Source: a phage
Length of the DNA stretch: 64,000 bases
Sequence record: NC_094493.1
Strand: one strand, 5' to 3'
Each line of letters begins with the position of its first letter. Position 1 is the stretch's first letter. The notes below the pieces were generated by a model. It was given only the letters and a program-made list of their open reading frames with translations, was not told the origin of the DNA and made no database searches. Below, piece after piece: positions 1 through 24,040 of this stretch. The position numbers and the translations under genes are program-made.

Positions 1-1212
1 ATAAGCGATCTGCAGCAGAAGCGAATGCCTGACTGCAAGATACCTATGAAAATCAGCAATCAGGACGACATTAAGCGATACCTGATCAGTGCTGGTTGGC
101 TTCCGACAATGTGGAGAACTAAGGATGTAACTAAAGACAGCAAGAAGAAAGCTCTACCTGATGCAGATGTTGATGCACGAGTATATGCATACATGGACGA
201 GCTTTTAGAGTCAGAGTATTGTGACCTAATTATCAACTTCTGGAACAAAACTGATGCTAAGTTTCAGACAACAGTGCACAAGTTCCGAAGCTTTCCTAAC
301 TCCGAAAGGATTAAAAAGGAAGTATTCGGGAAAATACGTAGAAAAGCTAGGGCACTTATTACTTCTCCGCAACTGAAAGATACGTTTGGACACCTATGTC
401 CGAATCTTGAAAAATTGAACGGAGAGATGGCTAAGGATATCGTCTTGTGGTTATCCTTGCGAAACCGCAGATCGGTCCTTGATCCAATCAAGGAGGATAA
501 GGTTGATACTGGTCTTCTTAATCACCCACGCTTGAAGATTGACCATAAGCTTCCTGCTAAAAGCTCCGGATTAACAAACACTTCCAGACAGAAACACAGC
601 ATTTGTGCAAACATGCCTAAACCCTCTCCTAAAGTGGTTATGGGTAAGGAGATGCGTAGCTTGTGGGGTGTTCCTCCTGGATACTTTGAGATCGGTATTG
701 ACGGGTCCAACTTAGAGCAGCTTATCGGGGCTTGGGGTGCCTTTGAGTTCGACAACGGCTTGTATTATGATGTTGTAAGTAACGGGGACGCACACCAAAA
801 CAATGCTGAGGCATATACAAAAGTAGCAGGCAGAGAGGTGTCTCGTAACGACGGTAAACCTATCACGTATGGGGTTATGTACGGGGCACAAAAAGATAAA
901 GTTGCAGATATGCTGGACATCTCTCCAGAGTTGGGACAAAGGGTAATCGATGCACTCTGGGATGCCAACCCTGGTCTTAAGGGGCGCAAAGAGGATCTGG
1001 AGAAATTCTGGGAAGCAACAGGTAAGAAGTTTATCTACTCTTTTGATGGTCATGCTATCTGGACCCGATCTAAACACTCTTTACTTAATGCATACCAACA
1101 GAATGGTGGTGCATCGCTGTGTGACTTGGTTGGGATACTTATGCACCACCAAATGGTGAAGCGTGGGTGGTACGATGAAGGTGTTCGTCGTATTATTTAT
1201 TACCATAAATAA
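1..1212 (+). CDS. DNA polymerase, family A (Pol I/T7-like), C-terminal region; 5' end lies outside the window
   Basis: Frame is open from base 1. Motif A-like IDGSNLEQL and motif B-like RxxxxGKxITYGVMYG; segment after motif B aligns by eye with T7/Klenow up to just before motif C. No HDE motif before the stop. Confidence 0.65.
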   Translation: MSDLQQKRMPDCKIPMKISNQDDIKRYLISAGWLPTMWRTKDVTKDSKKKALPDADVDARVYAYMDELLESEYCDLIINFWNKTDAKFQTTVHKFRSFPNSERIKKEVFGKIRRKARALITSPQLKDTFGHLCPNLEKLNGEMAKDIVLWLSLRNRRSVLDPIKEDKVDTGLLNHPRLKIDHKLPAKSSGLTNTSRQKHSICANMPKPSPKVVMGKEMRSLWGVPPGYFEIGIDGSNLEQLIGAWGAFEFDNGLYYDVVSNGDAHQNNAEAYTKVAGREVSRNDGKPITYGVMYGAQKDKVADMLDISPELGQRVIDALWDANPGLKGRKEDLEKFWEATGKKFIYSFDGHAIWTRSKHSLLNAYQQNGGASLCDLVGILMHHQMVKRGWYDEGVRRIIYYHK

Positions 1213-1458
1213 CATTGTGGCTTCATAGAGTAATCTATGTCGAATAACCTCTTTAACTGCGGGAAGCCTAAACCTTATGGCAAGGTAATCCGCAACGAAG
1301 CGCTCAAAAGAGCGAACGCTCAGAGGCCATTCCGAAAGGAAGTAGACCAGCAAGTGCGGTCGAAATGGGAGGATTCCTGTGGTTGCTTATCATAGGAATA
1401 TGAGATGGTCCGATCCTACGTGAAAACGTATGGCTATGCACGTAATGGTGCGGGGTAG
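1213..1458 (+). other. Structured non-coding insert between the two polymerase ORFs; candidate group I intron
   Basis: In-frame stops separate two same-frame polymerase ORFs. Contains P-like TGCGGGAAG and Q-like AATCCGCAA elements in canonical order, plus several short hairpins with GAAA/GCAA loops. Confidence 0.3.
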
Positions 1459-8994: not shown

Positions 8995-9015
8995 GAAAGT
9001 CCAGGAGATAAAGTT

Positions 9016-9261
9016 ATGAACAAAGGGTGGACATTTGTAGACGGCGTTAAAAACATGCCTCTAGGAAAGTATATTGTAGCCATGGCAGATGAGAATGGCA
9101 ATGTGGATTTCGGAGCTTGCGAGGTTGTTCTTGCAGGATCTGGTAACTATGTGGACAAAACCGGGATAATTAACGGTCAGTTCTACTTTGATCACAACCC
9201 TGTTGTAGCGTATATGGCTATGCCAGAGTTCAAGTTCCCAAAGGAGGGTGCAGATGTTTAA
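9016..9261 (+). CDS. hypothetical protein
   Basis: ORF with RBS caggagataaagtt ATG. Confidence 0.5.
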   Translation: MNKGWTFVDGVKNMPLGKYIVAMADENGNVDFGACEVVLAGSGNYVDKTGIINGQFYFDHNPVVAYMAMPEFKFPKEGADV

Positions 9262-9451
9262 GCTTAAATCTGCATGGAACATCGCTGTGGGGGACGAGAT
9301 CCGTATCCCAGGTGGAAAGACCATTATGAAGATATCTCGTATCGAGTACGAAGGTGATCGTGTATTTCATATCTTTGCAGAGGATGGTCGAGAAATTTAT
9401 ATACAGGCAGGCTCTCACATCTATATTCGTAAGAAAGGGGACGACAAATGA
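9254..9451 (+). CDS. hypothetical protein
   Basis: RBS aaggaggg before ATG at 9254. Confidence 0.5.
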   Translation: MFKLKSAWNIAVGDEIRIPGGKTIMKISRIEYEGDRVFHIFAEDGREIYIQAGSHIYIRKKGDDK

Positions 9452-9777
9452 CAGAGATCATCATTTCAACTGCAGGGTATGTGTTCCTGACAATCATTGC
9501 ACTGACCATTCTGGTGGTGGTATATGGAATTGTTATTCTCCCTATTCTTGAGACAATTAGTTTGTGTCGGTGTTGGAGAAAGGCTTACGGTCCACAGCCG
9601 TGGAAGGACTGGCCCCACCTGGTGCACATAGCGTTCTCTTATGCTTATGATCACGCCAGCAGTGCATGCATAACCGGGTATCACGCCCACAACTGGAGCT
9701 GGGAAGGGTTGAGGAAATGGAATGTTACAAAGACCATACCTCTGCGCATGTACAAACCTAAAAACAAAGACAGCTGA
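9448..9777 (+). CDS. putative membrane protein
   Basis: ORF with ATGA overlap; hydrophobic N-terminal helix (AGYVFLTIIALTILVVVYGIVILPIL). Confidence 0.5.
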   Translation: MTEIIISTAGYVFLTIIALTILVVVYGIVILPILETISLCRCWRKAYGPQPWKDWPHLVHIAFSYAYDHASSACITGYHAHNWSWEGLRKWNVTKTIPLRMYKPKNKDS

Positions 9778-9779
9778 TA

Positions 9780-10790
9780 CTTGAAAATTCCTGGCATATC
9801 AAGTATAAGGGGGATTTCTAAAATGGATTTCCTCCTTTTGATATTTCACCGGGCCGGATATTTTAAAATTCTTAGAAAATCAGAAAATGGATCGAAAACT
9901 AAAATGGATTTTTCAGAGTAGGCGCGACAAGCTGAATAACTCATCCTATCGTTTGCACCATATTCCAGGCCACCATTATAGATTTCCCACACATGCTAAC
10001 CTCCCTCTACTAGAACTTCCTCCACTTACCCTTGACCTTCTATGGTAACAATCTAACCACTATCTTGAAGTTGCGGTGCAGCTTTCCAGGTACTCGATCT
10101 ACTTTTCATTTCAGGGCTTGGATTTTCTGAAAATTTTTCTCGATAAATTTCTCAGTACTCGATCTGTTTTTCGTTTTCTGAATCGGATTTTCTGGAAATC
10201 GTTCCGGCTCTCGACCTGAAATTTTTGGGGACGAAATCGATTTTTCGTTTTCAGAAATGGATTTTTAAAATTTCTATATGGGAATATTTTAGTGGATACT
10301 ATTTTATAGGAAATTGTTACGGAGGGTAATTAGCGTGCTAATTAAATTTATTAAATGCGAGGAGTTCTCATTTAGAATTTTGAATGATAATCATTCTCGT
10401 TTGCAGAATAACGGGCAGGCCCGGTGATTGTCTCCCGGCCCCTACTGCCCCGGCTTGTTATTATAGTAACACACAGGACAAAGAAAGCAAGAAGTTTTTG
10501 CATAAATTTTTAGACGATAATGATAATCGTTCTCATTTCATGCAGCGCCCATCCCCGGTGGTTGTCTCCCCCGTCACCGGTGCCTGCCGTCCTTTCGATA
10601 GGTATATTTTGCCACCTGGCGGGGCCGCTGTCAACACTTTTCAAAAAAAAAAAATTCTAACCTGATGCGCTGACCGCTGCAACCTGGCGGGGCCAGCCTG
10701 GCAGGGCCTAACTGACCAGGTAGGAGAGAATGAAGGCTTGCAAACCTGGTGGGCCTATGCTATAGGATAGGTAACAATTGAAGAGGAGGT
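9780..10790. repeat. Repeat-rich non-coding region (iteron-like short repeats, tandem ~60-bp repeats, duplicated ~70-bp units)
   Basis: AAAATGGATTT recurs at least four times; tandem repeats at 10088-10275 (GTACTCGATCT...TTTTCGTTTTC...GGATTTTCTG); two related units 10383-10454 and 10515-10590; CCTGGCGGGGCC recurs. Confidence 0.6.
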
Positions 10791-10796
10791 ACAAAA

Positions 10797-10973
10797 ATGG
10801 AAGGTAATATGATCCCCCTGGAAAATGTAGCTATTAATGACGCTGAGGCTATCGCCCTGGTTGAAAAGGCTATGGCGGGAGCGTTGGAACATAAAGAAGA
10901 GTACGAAAAAATGATGGTTAACCTGGCAGGGGCGGCGGCTGGAGAATTCTACCCAAAAAATAATTTTAACTAA
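10797..10973 (+). CDS. small hypothetical protein
   Basis: 58 aa ORF with strong RBS gaggaggt, 7 nt before the ATG. Confidence 0.35.
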   Translation: MEGNMIPLENVAINDAEAIALVEKAMAGALEHKEEYEKMMVNLAGAAAGEFYPKNNFN

Positions 10974-11058
10974 TGGTTGACAGCTCGGACAGTTCTTGTT
11001 ATTCTTATCCTCGCAAGGTGAACAACACCACACCAATTAACAGAGAGGATAAAAAATC

Positions 11059-11256
11059 ATGAACGCCTACGGAATTAAAGTACGTCGCAACACTCGCCAG
11101 GTGGTCACCAATCAAGTGATTTGCCGGGTGGATGTAACCATCAACAACGGGCAAGGCCTTTATAAATTTCGTCGCGGTCATAGCTATACCCTGCAACAGC
11201 TTAACCGTTGCGCCCTGACAAAAGGTCAGATCAACCACTGGTTTAATAAAAAATAA
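11059..11256 (+). CDS. hypothetical basic protein
   Basis: Own TTGACA promoter (~10977); conserved RBS gaggataaaaaatc ATG. Confidence 0.5.
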   Translation: MNAYGIKVRRNTRQVVTNQVICRVDVTINNGQGLYKFRRGHSYTLQQLNRCALTKGQINHWFNKK

Positions 11257-11319
11257 TGTTGACATATGGTCTGACACAAAATACACTGAAATCGCAAAAG
11301 ACACTAAGAGGATAAAATC

Positions 11320-11718
11320 ATGAAAACCACTACCTTTAATTTTGATAATGCGGACTTTTCTTTTTCTGATGTCAAGAACTGCCGCCGTGATCGTGGATTT
11401 TACAAGTCTTATAATCTGGTGGGCCTGGACGATGACAATAATTTGCACGAAGTAGCTGAGATCCGGTATTATGCCGCCGCCAGTGGTAACACTCACTACT
11501 GCGTGTTTTGGATTCACGACAACAAGAACAATAAGTACGGTTATACTGGCGGCAAGGCGAGCGGTCACGGTTACGATAAAGCTAACGCAGCACTTGAGAG
11601 TGCATTAAATGCTATGGAGATCACTGCCGACGGCTGGATCTACGAAGAAGAGTTTTTGTCGGCACTTGCTGACCACCTGGGCTATAAAAAGCACATTGTG
11701 ACATGCGCCCACGAATAA
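11320..11718 (+). CDS. hypothetical protein
   Basis: Promoter TTGACA ~11258; RBS gaggataaaatc ATG. Confidence 0.55.
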   Translation: MKTTTFNFDNADFSFSDVKNCRRDRGFYKSYNLVGLDDDNNLHEVAEIRYYAAASGNTHYCVFWIHDNKNNKYGYTGGKASGHGYDKANAALESALNAMEITADGWIYEEEFLSALADHLGYKKHIVTCAHE

Positions 11719-19425: not shown

Positions 19426-19440
19426 TATTTATAAACTACA

Positions 19441-19472
19441 AAACAGGGCTTGCAATGGTCCTGTTTTTTGTT
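19441..19472 (+). terminator. Putative intrinsic terminator
   Basis: Imperfect hairpin acagggcttgcaatggtcctgt followed by TTTTTT. Confidence 0.45.
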
Positions 19473-19484
19473 ATACTTATTCCA

Positions 19485-19530
19485 CGGCAGGCACCTGGCG
19501 ACGGGGGGAGACAATCACCGGGCCTGCCTG
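19485..19530. repeat. Inverted copy of the element found at 10413-10454 and 10553-10589
   Basis: Reverse complement matches core CCGGTGATTGTCTCCC plus flanking GGCAGG and GGTGCCTGCC; the element is itself a long hairpin. Confidence 0.5.
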
Positions 19531-19640
19531 TCATATAAGAACTATAAAAACCGTTGACATCTGCCATGGGGTGGGGTAACATTTATCTTGAAGGGGCAAG
19601 ACGTTTGCCCCACACAACAACCAGAAGAGAGGAAAACATC

Positions 19641-20849: not shown

Positions 20850-23290
20850 GCTCTTCCCCCTACCATAAACGGCCCTACCTGGCAAGTGGAATAATTGACG
20901 AGCCATCAATCCCACACACTGTACAAATATACATGTAAAATAGCTATTGCATAACCTTTCATTGTGTGGTAGCAGGGCTATTTTTACCCGTTTTCCCTTC
21001 CAAAATTGCACGTAATGCCGCTATTGCACAAATTTTAACCTGATGCACATCTCCAATATCTTGTCAACAACTAAAAATCTTTATAAGTCATACACTTACA
21101 CAACATAGAAAGCGTGTCCTACGCGAAAAATCGAGTATAACTATAGCCGCCAGATCTCAGAATTCACGTACGCACGCCATTCTATAGCCTGCAAAGTATT
21201 TATTCCAACCACAGAATAACGGAATAGTCAATACCTGCATAAAATAATTATTCGTGTAAACTGCATAACATAAATCAGCTCAGGTGTCAACATTTTTCGT
21301 AAACAGTCCGAAATTATCACGATGAGTTATCATAAACAGAGAAATCTTTAGTCGTCTAATGTTTACTGTACATTACTATACTGACTGGAATCATTAGATG
21401 ACTAAGAGAAAGATAAGAAATAATTAATAATGTGATTATTTTACCTGTAACAATAAGGCAACTATGCAAACGAATGGCATGGCGCGACGGAGTCGCGACA
21501 TAATATAAAAGCAGTAACCATCACCCCCGTGATAGTTTGTCTGCAATCTATTAATCAGATCATAGTTGCCTTGTATTTAGTTAATCATGACATAACAAGC
21601 AAGGCAACTATAGATCTTCTAATAGTTGCCCTGCTTTTATATTATGTCATAGAAACACCCGAAGGGGTGACCAAAGGTCACCTGGCATAGCCAGCGAAAG
21701 ATTATTAACTTGCTAATCGTTATCATGCAAACGAATGGCATGGCTTATAATTTTTGAGCAAATAGTCTATACGTGAACAGTGAGGCATGCAATAGTAACA
21801 ATTGTTATTATATCCAGTGTTTAGTTTGCCCAGTGTGTCACTATTATGTCATATTATGTCACAGTATGTCAGACAAGTTTTTCTCCTCTTTGTCAAGTGC
21901 TGCATGAAAAATTTACAAGCTGGTATGGTAGCATTTTTGCGGTCCTGTTTACATTCAGTAATGTATGTATAATCCTTGTTGTGTGGGCGTTTAGACGTCT
22001 AGACGGTTGGAAGTCCACAGGTCAATATCTAATCTATCGGCTGCTAACTATATCCCACACAAATAGTAAGAAATATGATTGTTATATGCGTAAACAGTAA
22101 CTCATGTTATCAATCCCTGTATGTATCGCCAGTGGTGCGCATAATGGGTATTATGTTAAATTGCCCGTAATGATAATGGTTCTCACAATGATATGTATTC
22201 TCATTCCCCCACACAAAATAGATTGCAAATGTTGTGCCACTATGTGAACGGCCTCACCTATTAATTTGCCTCACTGCCTCGATATTTGAGAATTGTTATA
22301 AGAATGAGAATGATTCCCATTTCGTCCGCCTGGCAGCACTCCTGTAGGACAAGCACAAAATCGTGGCATAGCTGGACCTGTTCAGATATTTCTGGCTGGC
22401 TCTTCAGGTCTGTGTGGGAAAAGCCAACCCCCTCCGGCGGCGGGGAGGGTGTCAATTAAAAAATTTATGGGGTATATGAAGCGCTCTTCAGGTAAGGCAT
22501 GTACTATGGGATGAAACCCTCTTCAGGCAATGATATTTGTGGGTGTGATATTTGCTGGAAAGCCAGATATGACGGGACTCCCGGCGGGGCAGGGGTAGTA
22601 CAGACAGGGAAAATATGGGGATGTAGTTGGGTGAATTGATCGGGCAGGTAGAGTACGGAATATGTTACAAGTATGTTAAATATGGAGGGTGAATATCTGC
22701 AGGATTTGTGTGTAAAATCAAAGACTTAAGTAGTGTTGTGGTATTTTCTATAAATAATTCAAGTTTAATAGGTAATATTTGTCTCTATCCACTTTGTGTG
22801 GTAAACAAATTCAAATGAGATTGGTTTACAAGTGTATACATAATATGCAAATTAAAGATACAAGAAACCCCCCTCCCCCTTCGGCTACCATTCACCTTTT
22901 CCTCTGACTGGTACTTAAACACTTATTCAGACTCTTCAGGTTATCACCCATACACCATATGGCAGTGACTGGTGTCCTCCGGCCCCTCTTTCGTCACCCG
23001 TCCGCTTCGCCATGCTAATGCCATAGCCAAATGTTCGGTTGTTCACCCTGTTCACTCAGGTGTATCTCCATACCCCTTCAAACCGAAGAGAACAGAAAAC
23101 CCGAATTACTCGGTAAAAGAAAAGAGAAGAACTTAATTTTATCAGGATAGGCAAGAATGTCAAGGCATGACTGCTCACTAAACAAGCAAACAGTCATGTG
23201 TGGGAGGTAAGTGATTGTGGTGGTAGGAAATTTAGTTGAAAGATGTGTTATAGGTGCTTCCAGCACTTTAGCCTGGCAGCTAATTGTGTG
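20850..23290. other. ~2.4 kb non-coding, repeat-rich convergence region between the + and - gene blocks
   Basis: No convincing ORF. Short direct repeats (AACGAATGGCATGGC x2; GGCAACTAT/ATAGTTGCC in both orientations; TATGTCA x3; CTCTTCAGG x3); GC hairpins around 22430 and 22580. Confidence 0.5.
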
Positions 23291-23572
23291 TCAGTCCAGC
23301 GGTTCATCCTCTACTTCACTGAAATCAATGTTCATGGTCTCTTCCCAACCATCGATCTCAGCACAAGAGTGGAGTTCTTTAGGGTTTACTCCCAAAGCCT
23401 CAGCAACAGAGTCTATATTTAACACCTCTGGCAGGTATGATTCATCGAATTCAAGGTAAATCAGGCCACGAGTGTTGTCAACTCCACCAAATATTTCTAT
23501 CTTCATGAAATCTCCTCTGGAAATGAGAGTGTGAACAGGGTTTATACGTTCCAATGCACTGGAATTATGCAC
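23291..23572 (-). CDS. hypothetical acidic protein
   Basis: ORF; true start may be the internal ATG at 23506 (MKIEIFGG...), matching N-termini of neighbouring paralogues. Confidence 0.45.
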   Translation of the reverse strand: MHNSSALERINPVHTLISRGDFMKIEIFGGVDNTRGLIYLEFDESYLPEVLNIDSVAEALGVNPKELHSCAEIDGWEETMNIDFSEVEDEPLD

Positions 23573-23626
23573 GTTTGCCTCTTCAGACCATGCTTTAGCA
23601 TGAGGAACCTGTGTGGGCTCGGTGCT

Positions 23627-24040
23627 TCATAGTCTACCACCCCTGAACTCTTCGTGCTCAGGCATAATAGAGAACCAGATATCTACGATGTCTTCCCACG
23701 TTAGGTCATCAGCCTCAGGATCTACCTGGAGCGAAGATGGAGAATCTTCAGAATCGAAGTTTTCCTCTTTCACTGGCTCAGCCAAGGGACATATAGTCAC
23801 TCCTTTGGATGTCTCTTCAAATGCATGTGTGTTTATCATGTTCCACCCGTGAGTATTCCGGCAACAGCCACTATGGACGTAATGATCATCAGGATCACCA
23901 CCAAAACCTCTGACAATGTTTTCATTGTGTGTCCCATATTCTCCAAACGATGTGTGGATACTATCACTGGAGCGGAAATGTGTCAACAGAAACGTCGCGA
24001 GGGTTTGGTTAAAATCCGAGCGTATGGTGATTTGGGTCAA
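23627..24040 (-). CDS. hypothetical protein
   Basis: ORF in - strand gene-dense block. Confidence 0.45.
   Translation of the reverse strand: MTQITIRSDFNQTLATFLLTHFRSSDSIHTSFGEYGTHNENIVRGFGGDPDDHYVHSGCCRNTHGWNMINTHAFEETSKGVTICPLAEPVKEENFDSEDSPSSLQVDPEADDLTWEDIVDIWFSIMPEHEEFRGGRL

Follow-up and report, generated by a model that had tools for sequence, protein, structure and literature searches.

The 64-kb stretch of phage DNA studied here (NC_094493.1, hereafter the window) belongs to a Vequintavirus (rV5/FFH2-like) whose host is E. coli. Our subject is the spacer at positions 9778–10796, which runs from the stop codon of a + strand open reading frame (ORF) at 9777 to an ATG at 10797 and sits within a long + strand block, between two gene blocks. 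We put at about an even chance the interpretation that this spacer is an ancient, non-coding cis-regulatory and possibly origin-like hub with Fur operators downstream of leftward early promoters, common to the Vequintavirinae and in part to the Stephanstirmvirinae. Its GC-rich right third reads as a tandem duplication of a promoter, a ~45-nt GAGACAAYCACCG leader and a 19-bp palindrome that matches Fur boxes, and its AT-rich left two-thirds, with their fixed geometry, most likely serve to assemble a nucleoprotein complex that would act as a replication origin or else as an architectural or enhancer element. What is new is the predicted nature of the duplicated unit, a promoter–leader–Fur-operator module that appears to extend across a wide group of virulent enterobacterial phages. 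A preliminary description had suggested a regulatory hub here, and the analysis, which found conserved promoters, operator-like palindromes and a leader element, supports that idea; some stretches of the spacer also exceed the neighbouring genes in conservation. The description had recognized neither the Fur-box palindromes nor the leftward promoters of the duplicated unit.

The spacer and its flanks matched 121 phage records, and in 108 of them the match spans 80% of the query or more. Closest are Vequintavirus genomes, namely 'Campylobacter phage D1' (99.7%; classed as Vequintavirus FFH2), FFH2 (~97%) and rV5 (92%). Within-genus comparisons used an alignment of ten Vequintavirus genomes, and the D1 record stood in for the remaining ~73 kb of the ~137-kb genome. 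Some 16–18 records are titled Campylobacter phages (MG065646, D1, C7, A140 and others) and are Vequintavirus genomes up to 99.7% identical to the window; since these entries bear the mark UNVERIFIED and the classification Vequintavirus FFH2, the host label Campylobacter is probably wrong. Other records are cited below, where necessary, by our own L numbers.

The features of the duplicated unit, and of a third copy of its promoter and leader, are the following.

10354–10372, unstranded: degenerate Fur-like box AATGCGAGGAGTTCTCATT, 29 bp upstream of box 1 (15.3–15.6 bits, inside the shuffled-sequence range)
10383–10401, unstranded: Fur-box palindrome 1, AATGATAATCATTCTCGTT (25.8 bits with a matrix from other genera only; maximum 18.9 in 20 shuffles)
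10405–10453, − strand: leader copy 1, read on the − strand as a 5′ stem CCGG/CCGG, then GAGACAATCACCG (10434→10422), then GCCTGCCCGTTATTC
10463–10490, − strand: candidate promoter P_L1, −35 TTGCTT (10490→10485), 16 nt, −10 TACTAT (10468→10463), with an overlapping TATAAT (10465→10460); read from the sequence
10516–10537, unstranded: Fur-box palindrome 2, GATAATGATAATCGTTCTC (10516–10534), with the 19-mer AATGATAATCGTTCTCATT at 10519–10537 (27.0 bits)
10540–10599, − strand: leader copy 2, read on the − strand as GGCAGGCACCGGTGACGGGGGAGACAACCACCGGGG; closely resembles copy 3 at 19479–19530
10606–10634, − strand: candidate promoter P_L2, TTGACA, 17 nt, (TG)CAAAAT, an extended −10, preceded by an A/T run at 10643–10654; 10 of 12 consensus positions in the scan
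19437–19545, + strand: third candidate promoter and leader, a terminator hairpin with TTGCAA in its loop, 16 nt, TATACT, GGCAGGCACCTGGCGACGGGGGGAGACAATCACCGGGCCTGCC; core at 19508–19520

In sequence terms the two palindromes are equivalent to Fur boxes. Box 1 (10385–10399) and box 2 (10521–10535) each differ at two positions from the 7-1-7 motif TGATAATnATTATCA, which at up to three mismatches occurs 21 times in the window against 6.2 ± 2.6 expected; no shuffle reaches 21, and the matches cluster in the spacer and at 22.17–22.32 kb. The site at 10516–10534 agrees at 17 of 19 positions with the classical Fur consensus GATAATGATAATCATTATC and is the only one in the 64 kb within three mismatches of it (counted on both strands this makes 2 matches, against 0.08 expected). 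The genome-wide scan used a matrix built without Vequintavirus sites and a background of 20 shuffles of the window (maximum 18.9 bits). In the ~137-kb genome as a whole, only five positions score 20 bits or more (10383, 10519, 22169, 22187 and 22303), and in the remaining ~73 kb (D1 record) none rises above 16.3 bits. Box arrays with an exact 29-bp period are found in six other genomes, with 1–6 boxes per array between genera, and the degenerate box at 10354 keeps this 29-bp register with box 1. In every genus the box adjoining the leader stands at a fixed distance from GAAT and the leader.

The converse comparison gave the same picture. Applied to 600–650 kb of the E. coli K-12 genome, a matrix made from phage boxes only placed its top six matches, all of them, in the fepB-entC, fepD-entS and fepA-fes intergenic regions, which amount to ~1.5% of the sequence scanned. 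An enlarged phage-only matrix (19 boxes) had a single outlier in K-12 3556–3606 kb: the Fur box of ryhB scored 27.4 bits, and the runner-up 14.5. These fep/ent and ryhB regions we take, as established knowledge, to be Fur-controlled in E. coli. The ryhB box AATAATAATCATTCTCATT is identical to the phage consensus AATGATAATCATTCTCATT at 18 of 19 positions. Like the Fur operators of Enterobacterales (ryhB, fepA-fes, fepB-entC, fepD-entS, iucA), the phage sites are clustered 19-bp AT-rich palindromes with the 7-1-7 core TGA(T/G)AATnATT(C/A)TCA. Unlike the host operators, they lie in the gene-free spacer of a virulent phage, downstream of the best-supported promoters rather than over their −35/−10, they form strict 29-bp arrays in other phage genera, and no iron-related gene adjoins them.

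A host origin of the duplicated unit found no support: the unit has no match in 5,426 E. coli genomes, and its local alignment with the ryhB locus is significant over the Fur box alone. As a separate observation, the ryhB promoter (L031 25018–25041) was compared with L004 3004–3070 and L003 3036–3100: beyond the box, PVP-SE1 shares TTGTCTCGCGAT, 12 of 12, with the ryhB −10/+1 region, and anhysbys agrees with the ryhB promoter at 20 of 29 ungapped positions by hand count; local alignment statistics support the box only. Part of the stretch common to ryhB and the phages is the GCGA..UCGC stem found in stem-loop 1 of RyhB, but 27 nt are inserted between box and motif.

P_L2 fits a sigma-70 promoter in its hexamers, in a spacer within the 16–18-nt range and in the conservation of its hexamers. 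It is the sole minus-strand promoter with at least 10 of 12 consensus positions in 10.6–21 kb, and in relatives its −10 is CAAAAT, CACAAT or CATAAT, with A2 and T6 kept. P_L1 lies 134 bp to its left; it is the weakest of the promoter calls and was not listed by the automatic scan. When loci are aligned on the core GAGACAA(A/T/C)CACCG, a sigma-70 −10 ends 25–37 nt upstream in most lineages, the exceptions being Phapecoctavirus and Vequintavirus copy 1, for which the automatic search gave weak hexamers and the promoter was assigned by eye. The hexamers differ by lineage (TTGATC-16-TATTAT, TTGCAA-17-TATATT, TTGACC-17-GATAAT, TTGACA-16/17-TATTAT or CAHAAT) and the spacers between them are unrelated. 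Hexamers that stay conserved or valid while the spacers vary across genera are what one would see where selection maintains a genuine promoter. A sigma-54 promoter reading of the conserved core was dropped after a check by eye, and so were readings as IHF or DnaA sites (no match to the IHF consensus; DnaA boxes at background).

The leader core GAGACAAYCACCG is present exactly, in three copies in the window. The third lies on the + strand downstream of a + strand promoter, TTGCAA-16-TATACT, and this fixes the transcribed sense; the order within the duplicated unit is accordingly leftward promoter, leader, Fur box. The duplication noticed in the preliminary description is real (10383–10402 and 10519–10538 are 90% identical, 10420–10436 and 10554–10570 94%), with a period of 134–136 bp and not the ~70 bp given there. 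Phapecoctavirus and a Salmonella phage conserve the third copy at 82–86%; in Phapecoctavirus the phAPEC8 annotation has nothing but a 'terminator' at this place, and in the Salmonella phage weak Fur-like boxes (15–16 bits) follow the equivalent copy. A fourth, divergent leader copy lies elsewhere in the genome (D1 record, L028 near 18906, minus strand).

Comparison of the spacer with its relatives finds the repeat units conserved in several genera. Within Vequintavirus the alignment is patchy: 10094–10280 and 10345–10640 are nearly invariant, exceeding the flanking genes, the A/T run at 10643–10654 differs in length among the ten genomes, and 48 bp between two CCTGG repeats are deleted in L018–L020. 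A sensitive search found 10342–10491, centred on 10380–10438, conserved at 72–88% in distant relatives, namely Seunavirus (PVP-SE1, GAP31, 4MG), Mydovirus (Proteus Mydo, Klebsiella phages), Certrevirus (CB7, F4M1E), Phapecoctavirus (anhysbys, ESCO13) and Erwinia phage Hena1. Box 1 is the centre of this conserved segment, which is unannotated in nearly all of the distant-relative records.

Seunavirus, Mydovirus, Certrevirus and a Henunavirus-like lineage have the same series of modules in the same order, and Phapecoctavirus shares part of it. On the left are 2–5 GATATTT copies, in most genera AAATGG(A/T)TTT repeats, and then a variable stretch; in the middle are 3–7 units starting G(G/T)(T/A)CTCGATC, in most genera with an A6T6 tract per unit; on the right are 1–6 palindromes AATGAKAATSATTCTCATT, then ...GAAT, the motif CGGTGnTTGTCTC and AT-rich promoter hexamers. 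The series ends with a GC-rich CCWGG cluster and the rightward promoter that serves the small-gene array. Distances are kept as well. Measured from the proximal palindrome, the GTACTCGATC unit cores of Seunavirus and Mydovirus stand at about −292, −216 and −150 and those of the window at −294 and −229, and the A6T6-tract units of these two genera are homologous to the middle units of the window (Module C below). Every genus examined, Phapecoctavirus among them, has a GATATTT cluster (2–5 copies, ~12 bp apart in some genera) ~500–650 bp upstream of that palindrome. Certrevirus has 5–7 copies of GGTCTCGATC, and the GTACTCGATC unit cores are absent from the Phapecoctavirus and Hena1-like loci. 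Because the same module order and spacing occur in several genera of two subfamilies, the region is ancient and is not a recent acquisition junction.

We propose that host RNA polymerase would start at P_L2 and P_L1 and transcribe leftward, off the small-gene array and toward the repeat array. Iron-loaded Fur on the two operators, at about +50 to +70 of each transcript, would gate this transcription; at copy 1 it would additionally cover the spacer of a weak opposing promoter, TTGAAT-17-CAGAAT, convergent with P_L1. Host iron status would thereby be wired to the role of the leftward transcripts or of the repeat array.

Several points weigh against this proposal. Both boxes lie ~50–70 nt downstream of the better-supported leftward promoters, and an operator so far past the start is in an unusual position for Fur repression. 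Box 1, on the + strand, does lie between TTGAAT and CAGAAT (17-nt spacer), and box 2 has no such promoter, so only copy 1 has a plausible opposing promoter overlapping its box; even there the −10 is degenerate in three lineages, with the key A lost (CTGAAT, CGGAAT). One divergent relative (L014, copy 1) keeps the leader and has no Fur box. RNAalifold on 16 leader sequences gave no consensus structure, and single-sequence folding of the candidate transcripts from both strands was no better than shuffles (z −1.5 to +0.8). A protein merely sharing the specificity of Fur could bind the same palindromes. Finally, Fur binding, the start and end points of transcription, a roadblock effect and origin function, which is to say every functional step, are things that we infer.

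The left part of the spacer, whose AT content reaches 0.62–0.76 in places, contains the following.

9808–9839, + strand: terminator-like hairpin, AGGGGGA, a 15-nt loop containing the first AAAATGGATTT, TCCTCCT, then TTTT; ends the upstream gene block
9840–9916, unstranded: Module A, AT-rich, GATATTT twice (9840–9846, 9857–9863), then AAAATGGAT(C/T) repeats (9884–9894, 9901–9911); from the alignment
9917–10088, unstranded: Module B, hypervariable and of fixed length; from the ten-genome alignment
10089–10280, unstranded: Module C, three units of ~55–75 bp, with cores GTACTCGATC at 10090–10099 and 10155–10164 and a degenerate GGCTCTCGACC at 10207–10217
10327–10344, unstranded: palindrome TAATTAGCGTGCTAATTA with 8-bp arms, read from the sequence; a perfect 18-bp TAATTAGCATGCTAATTA in most relatives

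Both kinds of repeat reported here in the preliminary description are present. The iteron-like AAAATGGATTT occurs exactly at 9820–9830 and 9901–9911, with one-mismatch copies at 10254–10264 and, on the minus strand, at 10234–10244, and AAAATGGATCG at 9884–9894 is a two-mismatch copy. With up to one mismatch it occurs seven times in the window against 3.5 ± 1.8 expected, a number reached in 6 of 100 shuffles, and the signal is the four matches inside 450 bp, not the total in the window. The tandem ~60-bp repeats are three degenerate units (10080–10126, 10145–10191, 10219–10265), 70–74% identical and spaced 65 and 74 bp apart. Tandem Repeats Finder did not score the ~65-bp units, and its sole report is a 12-bp period at 10123–10150; we nevertheless take the units to be real because the block 10094–10280 is nearly invariant in ten Vequintavirus genomes whose flanking genes differ, and because homologous units of ~65–75 bp with the GTACTCGATC core recur in Seunavirus and Mydovirus. 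Measured by their cores, two exact and one degenerate GTACTCGATC, the Module C units are 65 and ~53 bp apart, and each contains TTTTCGTTTTC-type runs, GGATTTTCTG and A/T tracts. In all ten genomes the second GTACTCGATC core lies 65 bp, and the first palindrome 293 bp, from the first core.

Conservation to the left of Module C is equally uneven. The segment 9811–9916 is highly conserved, 9857–9916 is invariant in the ten genomes, and Module B shows ~60–70% identity (by eye) between three haplotypes, with its flanking anchors 195 bp apart in nine genomes and 196 bp in one. Module B holds a better-conserved core at ~9948–9998; helical phasing or a micro-ORF could conceivably account for the length constraint. 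The hairpin at 9808–9836 has a 7-bp stem that is fully paired in six distinct Vequintavirus sequences, with one compensatory pair (G-C to A-U) and one pair that varies between A-U and G-U, the latter permitted on the + strand only. Its loop is 15 nt long and the T-run is absent in L019 and L020, and its standing as a rho-independent terminator is uncertain.

Origin function, which the preliminary description had also raised, is possible for this array as far as its sequence goes, and it is compatible with our explanation of the left part of the spacer. In its full form the idea is that GATATTT is an unwinding element and the GTACTCGATC units are initiator-binding repeats, that leftward transcription activates or primes replication, and that the palindromes are bound by a phage protein and not by Fur; put so, it seems to us possible but distinctly doubtful. 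The ordered array, its A6T6 tracts, the distances conserved across genera and the strict length of the variable segment all suit an origin, as do early promoters that point into the array and a GATC inside the unit cores. Origins activated by transcription are known from T7, T4 and lambda. The spacer resembles iteron-type and transcription-activated origins (RK2 oriV, P1 oriR, lambda ori, the T7 primary origin, T4 oriF/oriG) in its direct repeats, its AT-rich short repeats, the GATC of its repeat cores and promoters that fire into the array. It differs from them in that the units have a 55–75-bp period, unlike classical 20–22-bp iterons, one-mismatch DnaA boxes are at background (four in ~1 kb against a window average of 3/kb), there is no IHF-consensus match at up to one mismatch in the spacer, and no adjacent initiator gene was identified. 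GC skew gives no support either, being positive or about zero through 1–21 kb and switching only at ~21–25 kb, where transcription converges; the rV5 paper reports that skew changes only where transcription changes direction (PMC3606486). The DnaA, IHF, skew and spacing results count also against the origin-like part of our own interpretation. In favour of an origin, a 120.6-kb viral contig that shares T5 array sequence (L045) has the same palindromes beside two TGTGGATAA DnaA boxes, and a preprint describes the T5 injection-stop region as oriC-like (10.1101/866236). Against the full origin model, the palindromes resemble the Fur sites of the host no less closely than those sites resemble one another, and they recur in phage families with different replication modules.

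A further possibility, one we would hold only tentatively and against the balance of the evidence, is that P_L1, P_L2 and the promoter near 19450 serve small-RNA genes whose short products expose GAGACAAYCACCG, or that the leader is a nut/put-like antitermination signal. There are three copies per window, each 25–37 nt past a sigma-70 −10, besides the fourth divergent copy, and the core is conserved across subfamilies. The adjoining 4-bp stem covaries, occurring in six versions (GCGA/UCGC, GCGC/GCGC, CGCA/UGCG, CGGG/CCCG, CCGG/CCGG, CCAG/CUGG), in a search that succeeds in ~5% of random sequences. The CG(C/U)(U/C)AUUC that follows the core resembles boxA (CGCUCUUA), and is a lead only. Against a small RNA stand the folding results given above and Rfam 15, which at permissive thresholds gave no match at E ≤ 1 in 9000–11500 or in five homologous loci, so that the evidence for the leader as a structured RNA is weak; nor is there a clear U-tract terminator after the leader, or a complementary target in the window besides the copies themselves. 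Like lambda early control (P_L/P_R, nutL/nutR), the spacer has divergent early promoters ~100 bp apart (P_L2 and the candidate at 10738) and an RNA element repeated downstream of promoters. Unlike lambda, it has no repressor gene, no known operators and no boxB-like conserved hairpin, and its leftward transcript is without an evident coding target.

The boxes also occur away from the leader. A second gene-free region, at 20940–24000, lies where + and − strand blocks converge (GC 0.36 at 21–22 kb) and has boxes at 22169–22187, 22187–22205, 22286–22304 and 22303–22321, three of them strong and one weaker. It contains the repeats GCAAACGAATGGCATGGC (two copies), ATAGTTGCC (three to four) and TATGTCA (three), and FFH2 annotates almost nothing over the equivalent 2.4 kb. 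The box cluster at 22169–22321 has no associated leader. Beyond these genomes, at least 119 further viral contigs (IMG/VR, L034–L152) contain an exact copy of the palindrome; among those listed, 58 have at least two boxes in 600 bp, 25 at least three and 12 at least four, with ten in ~520 bp in L057 and six to seven in L034, L092 and L135. Salmonella phage SP01, which is T5-like, is among these contigs, and its array is common to 442 T5-like records. When the viral contig collection was scanned with long module patterns, few loci came up.

In T5 itself (NC_005859, L153), Fur-like palindromes at 9552, 9587, 9656 and 9691 score 24.3, 17.2, 30.6 and 26.8 bits (record 9552–9710). They lie inside the annotated injection stop signal (9140–10149), next to GTGCAAATCCGACA direct repeats and A5T5 tracts. 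Davison's survey of 25 T5-like phages places the shear site of first-step transfer at ~9618 and discusses DnaA boxes, and Fur and iron are never mentioned in it (10.1101/866236). The T5 boxes bracket that site. Like the spacer, T5 Repeat Region 3/iss is ~1 kb of untranslated DNA with repeats, palindromes and A/T tracts that is better conserved than the neighbouring genes (10.1101/866236). T5 differs in its fixed ends and two-step injection, in having the region in a terminal repeat, and in eight DnaA boxes where the spacer is at background. Apart from the palindromes there is no detectable sequence homology between T5 and the spacer. The spacer accordingly does not fit a T5-type injection stop signal, with its terminal repeat, fixed ends, IRD′/IRC′ and eight DnaA boxes, and such a role is unlikely for it, since circular permutation is reported for its Certrevirus relatives CB7 and phiTE (PMC7344957).

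Since the same palindrome arrays are present in unrelated phage families that share only their hosts, the host protein Fur is favoured as the ligand over a lineage-specific phage protein. In temperate phages, the stx1 promoter carries a Fur site. The literature searched yielded phage Fur boxes only upstream of sitABCD, on temperate lambdoid phages (PMC6969025). These resemble the spacer in that phage DNA is put under the host iron regulon, and differ in preceding iron or virulence cargo genes, whereas the spacer sites precede no such gene and belong to a repeat-rich control region. We found nothing relevant in the literature on Fur with rV5-like (Vequintavirinae) or T5-like (Tequintavirus) phages.

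These same distributions bear on another explanation, that the boxes are decoys which, as the phage genome is copied, titrate Fur off the host chromosome, de-repressing iron uptake and RyhB and supplying iron for phage nucleotide synthesis. On a multicopy plasmid, one Fur box is enough to de-repress the Fur regulon (the FURTA principle). The variation from 1 to 6 boxes per array between genera suggests a dosage-type trait, and the leaderless second cluster and the arrays of up to ten boxes in other viral contigs fit as well. Against this, the box next to the leader keeps its distance from GAAT and leader in every genus, and the Vequintavirus duplication copied promoter, leader and box together; for both reasons a local role in cis is favoured, and we regard the decoy as unlikely.

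The spacer is non-coding. Public annotations place different tiny ORFs in it and disagree on strand and position, so that it is very improbable that it encodes several small proteins as annotated (rV5 gp193 and gp194; FFH2 ORF179–181), even though ORFs of 32–93 codons on both strands appear in many records. The commonest, 10384–10665 (93 aa, rV5 gp193), begins within the conserved palindrome, and its frame stops after 6–26 codons in anhysbys, GAP31 and PVP-SE1 despite the conserved DNA (hand reading). In hand translation the shared motif falls in different minus-strand frames in the two duplicated units. An open + frame of 52–53 codons from ATG 9887 does persist in all haplotypes, but a 53-codon open frame has a ~8% chance in random sequence, conserved peptide stretches in 9917–10088 shift frame relative to the start codon between haplotypes, and no ORF frame in Module B is conserved across haplotypes. 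Pfam searches with FFH2 ORF144 ('transcriptional regulator') and with the small minus-strand ORFs by the module in other genera returned only DUF7170. Several 'hypothetical proteins' annotated in the spacer in public records are probably not genes. The rV5 map has an uncommented 'non-coding' box (PMC3606486), which may be the larger gene-free region at 21–24 kb rather than the spacer.

Least probable of all, to the point of being hardly credible, is the suggestion in the preliminary description that the spacer is a recombination scar left when the small accessory genes were acquired: local mosaicism is present (the hypervariable segment, and the 48-bp deletion between direct repeats in some relatives), but several genera of two subfamilies show one and the same layout and spacing, and parts are nearly invariant.

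Two further features make up the right-hand end of the spacer.

10610–10756, unstranded: GC-rich block with four CACCTGGCGGGGCC-type repeats (10610, 10678, 10692, 10743) and five CCWGG sites
10738–10766, + strand: candidate rightward promoter of the small-gene array, TTGCAA, 17 nt, (TG)TATAGG, followed by a Shine-Dalgarno sequence and ATG 10797; read from the sequence

The CACCTGGCGGGGCC-type repeats could be operators for a protein or methylation-sensitive sites. CCWGG reaches 5 sites per 160 bp against a window average of ~0.3, the densest cluster in the window, and this Dcm-type cluster lies between the divergent P_L2 and rightward promoter. The latter is below the automatic scan threshold and has equivalents in divergent relatives, TTGCAA-17-TATATA (L014) and TTGCGC-17-TATAAA (L012). 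The change of gene style reported at the spacer is only partly borne out: terminator-like hairpins do rise downstream (22 against 10.3 expected; upstream 7 against 7.3), while strong + strand sigma-70-like promoters are about equally common on either side. In several Vequintavirus genomes the first ORF past the spacer (10797–10973, 58 aa) is changed by indels of 1 and 2 nt close to its 5′ end, and the ORF annotated in rV5 is shorter; the start or coding status of this ORF is doubtful. Far from the spacer, the window also contains a group I catalytic intron at 1197–1432 (+ strand; Rfam RF00028, 64.7 bits, a full-length model match).

Taken at the level of sequence, these arrays suggest that these virulent phages read or manipulate host iron status. 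We suggest, with some reserve and as rather less than an even proposition, that Fur-operator arrays are a recurrent and unrecognized part of the large conserved non-coding repeat regions of virulent enterobacterial phages, among them rV5-like and phAPEC8-like phages and T5, where they either sequester Fur or couple an early step to it; that step would be leftward early transcription, the start of replication or, in T5, DNA entry. If Fur does bind, lytic phages used in biocontrol and therapy (rV5-like, PVP-SE1-like, phAPEC8-like and T5-like) carry a sensor of, or a sponge for, the iron regulator of the host. In the gut and during infection iron is normally limiting, and the early transcription, replication or yield of these phages could then depend on iron in a way that laboratory media mask. 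The spacer would mark a likely origin or control region of rV5-like genomes, for which none has been defined so far, and the long-unexplained conserved repeat regions of T5-like phages would gain a testable candidate host factor.

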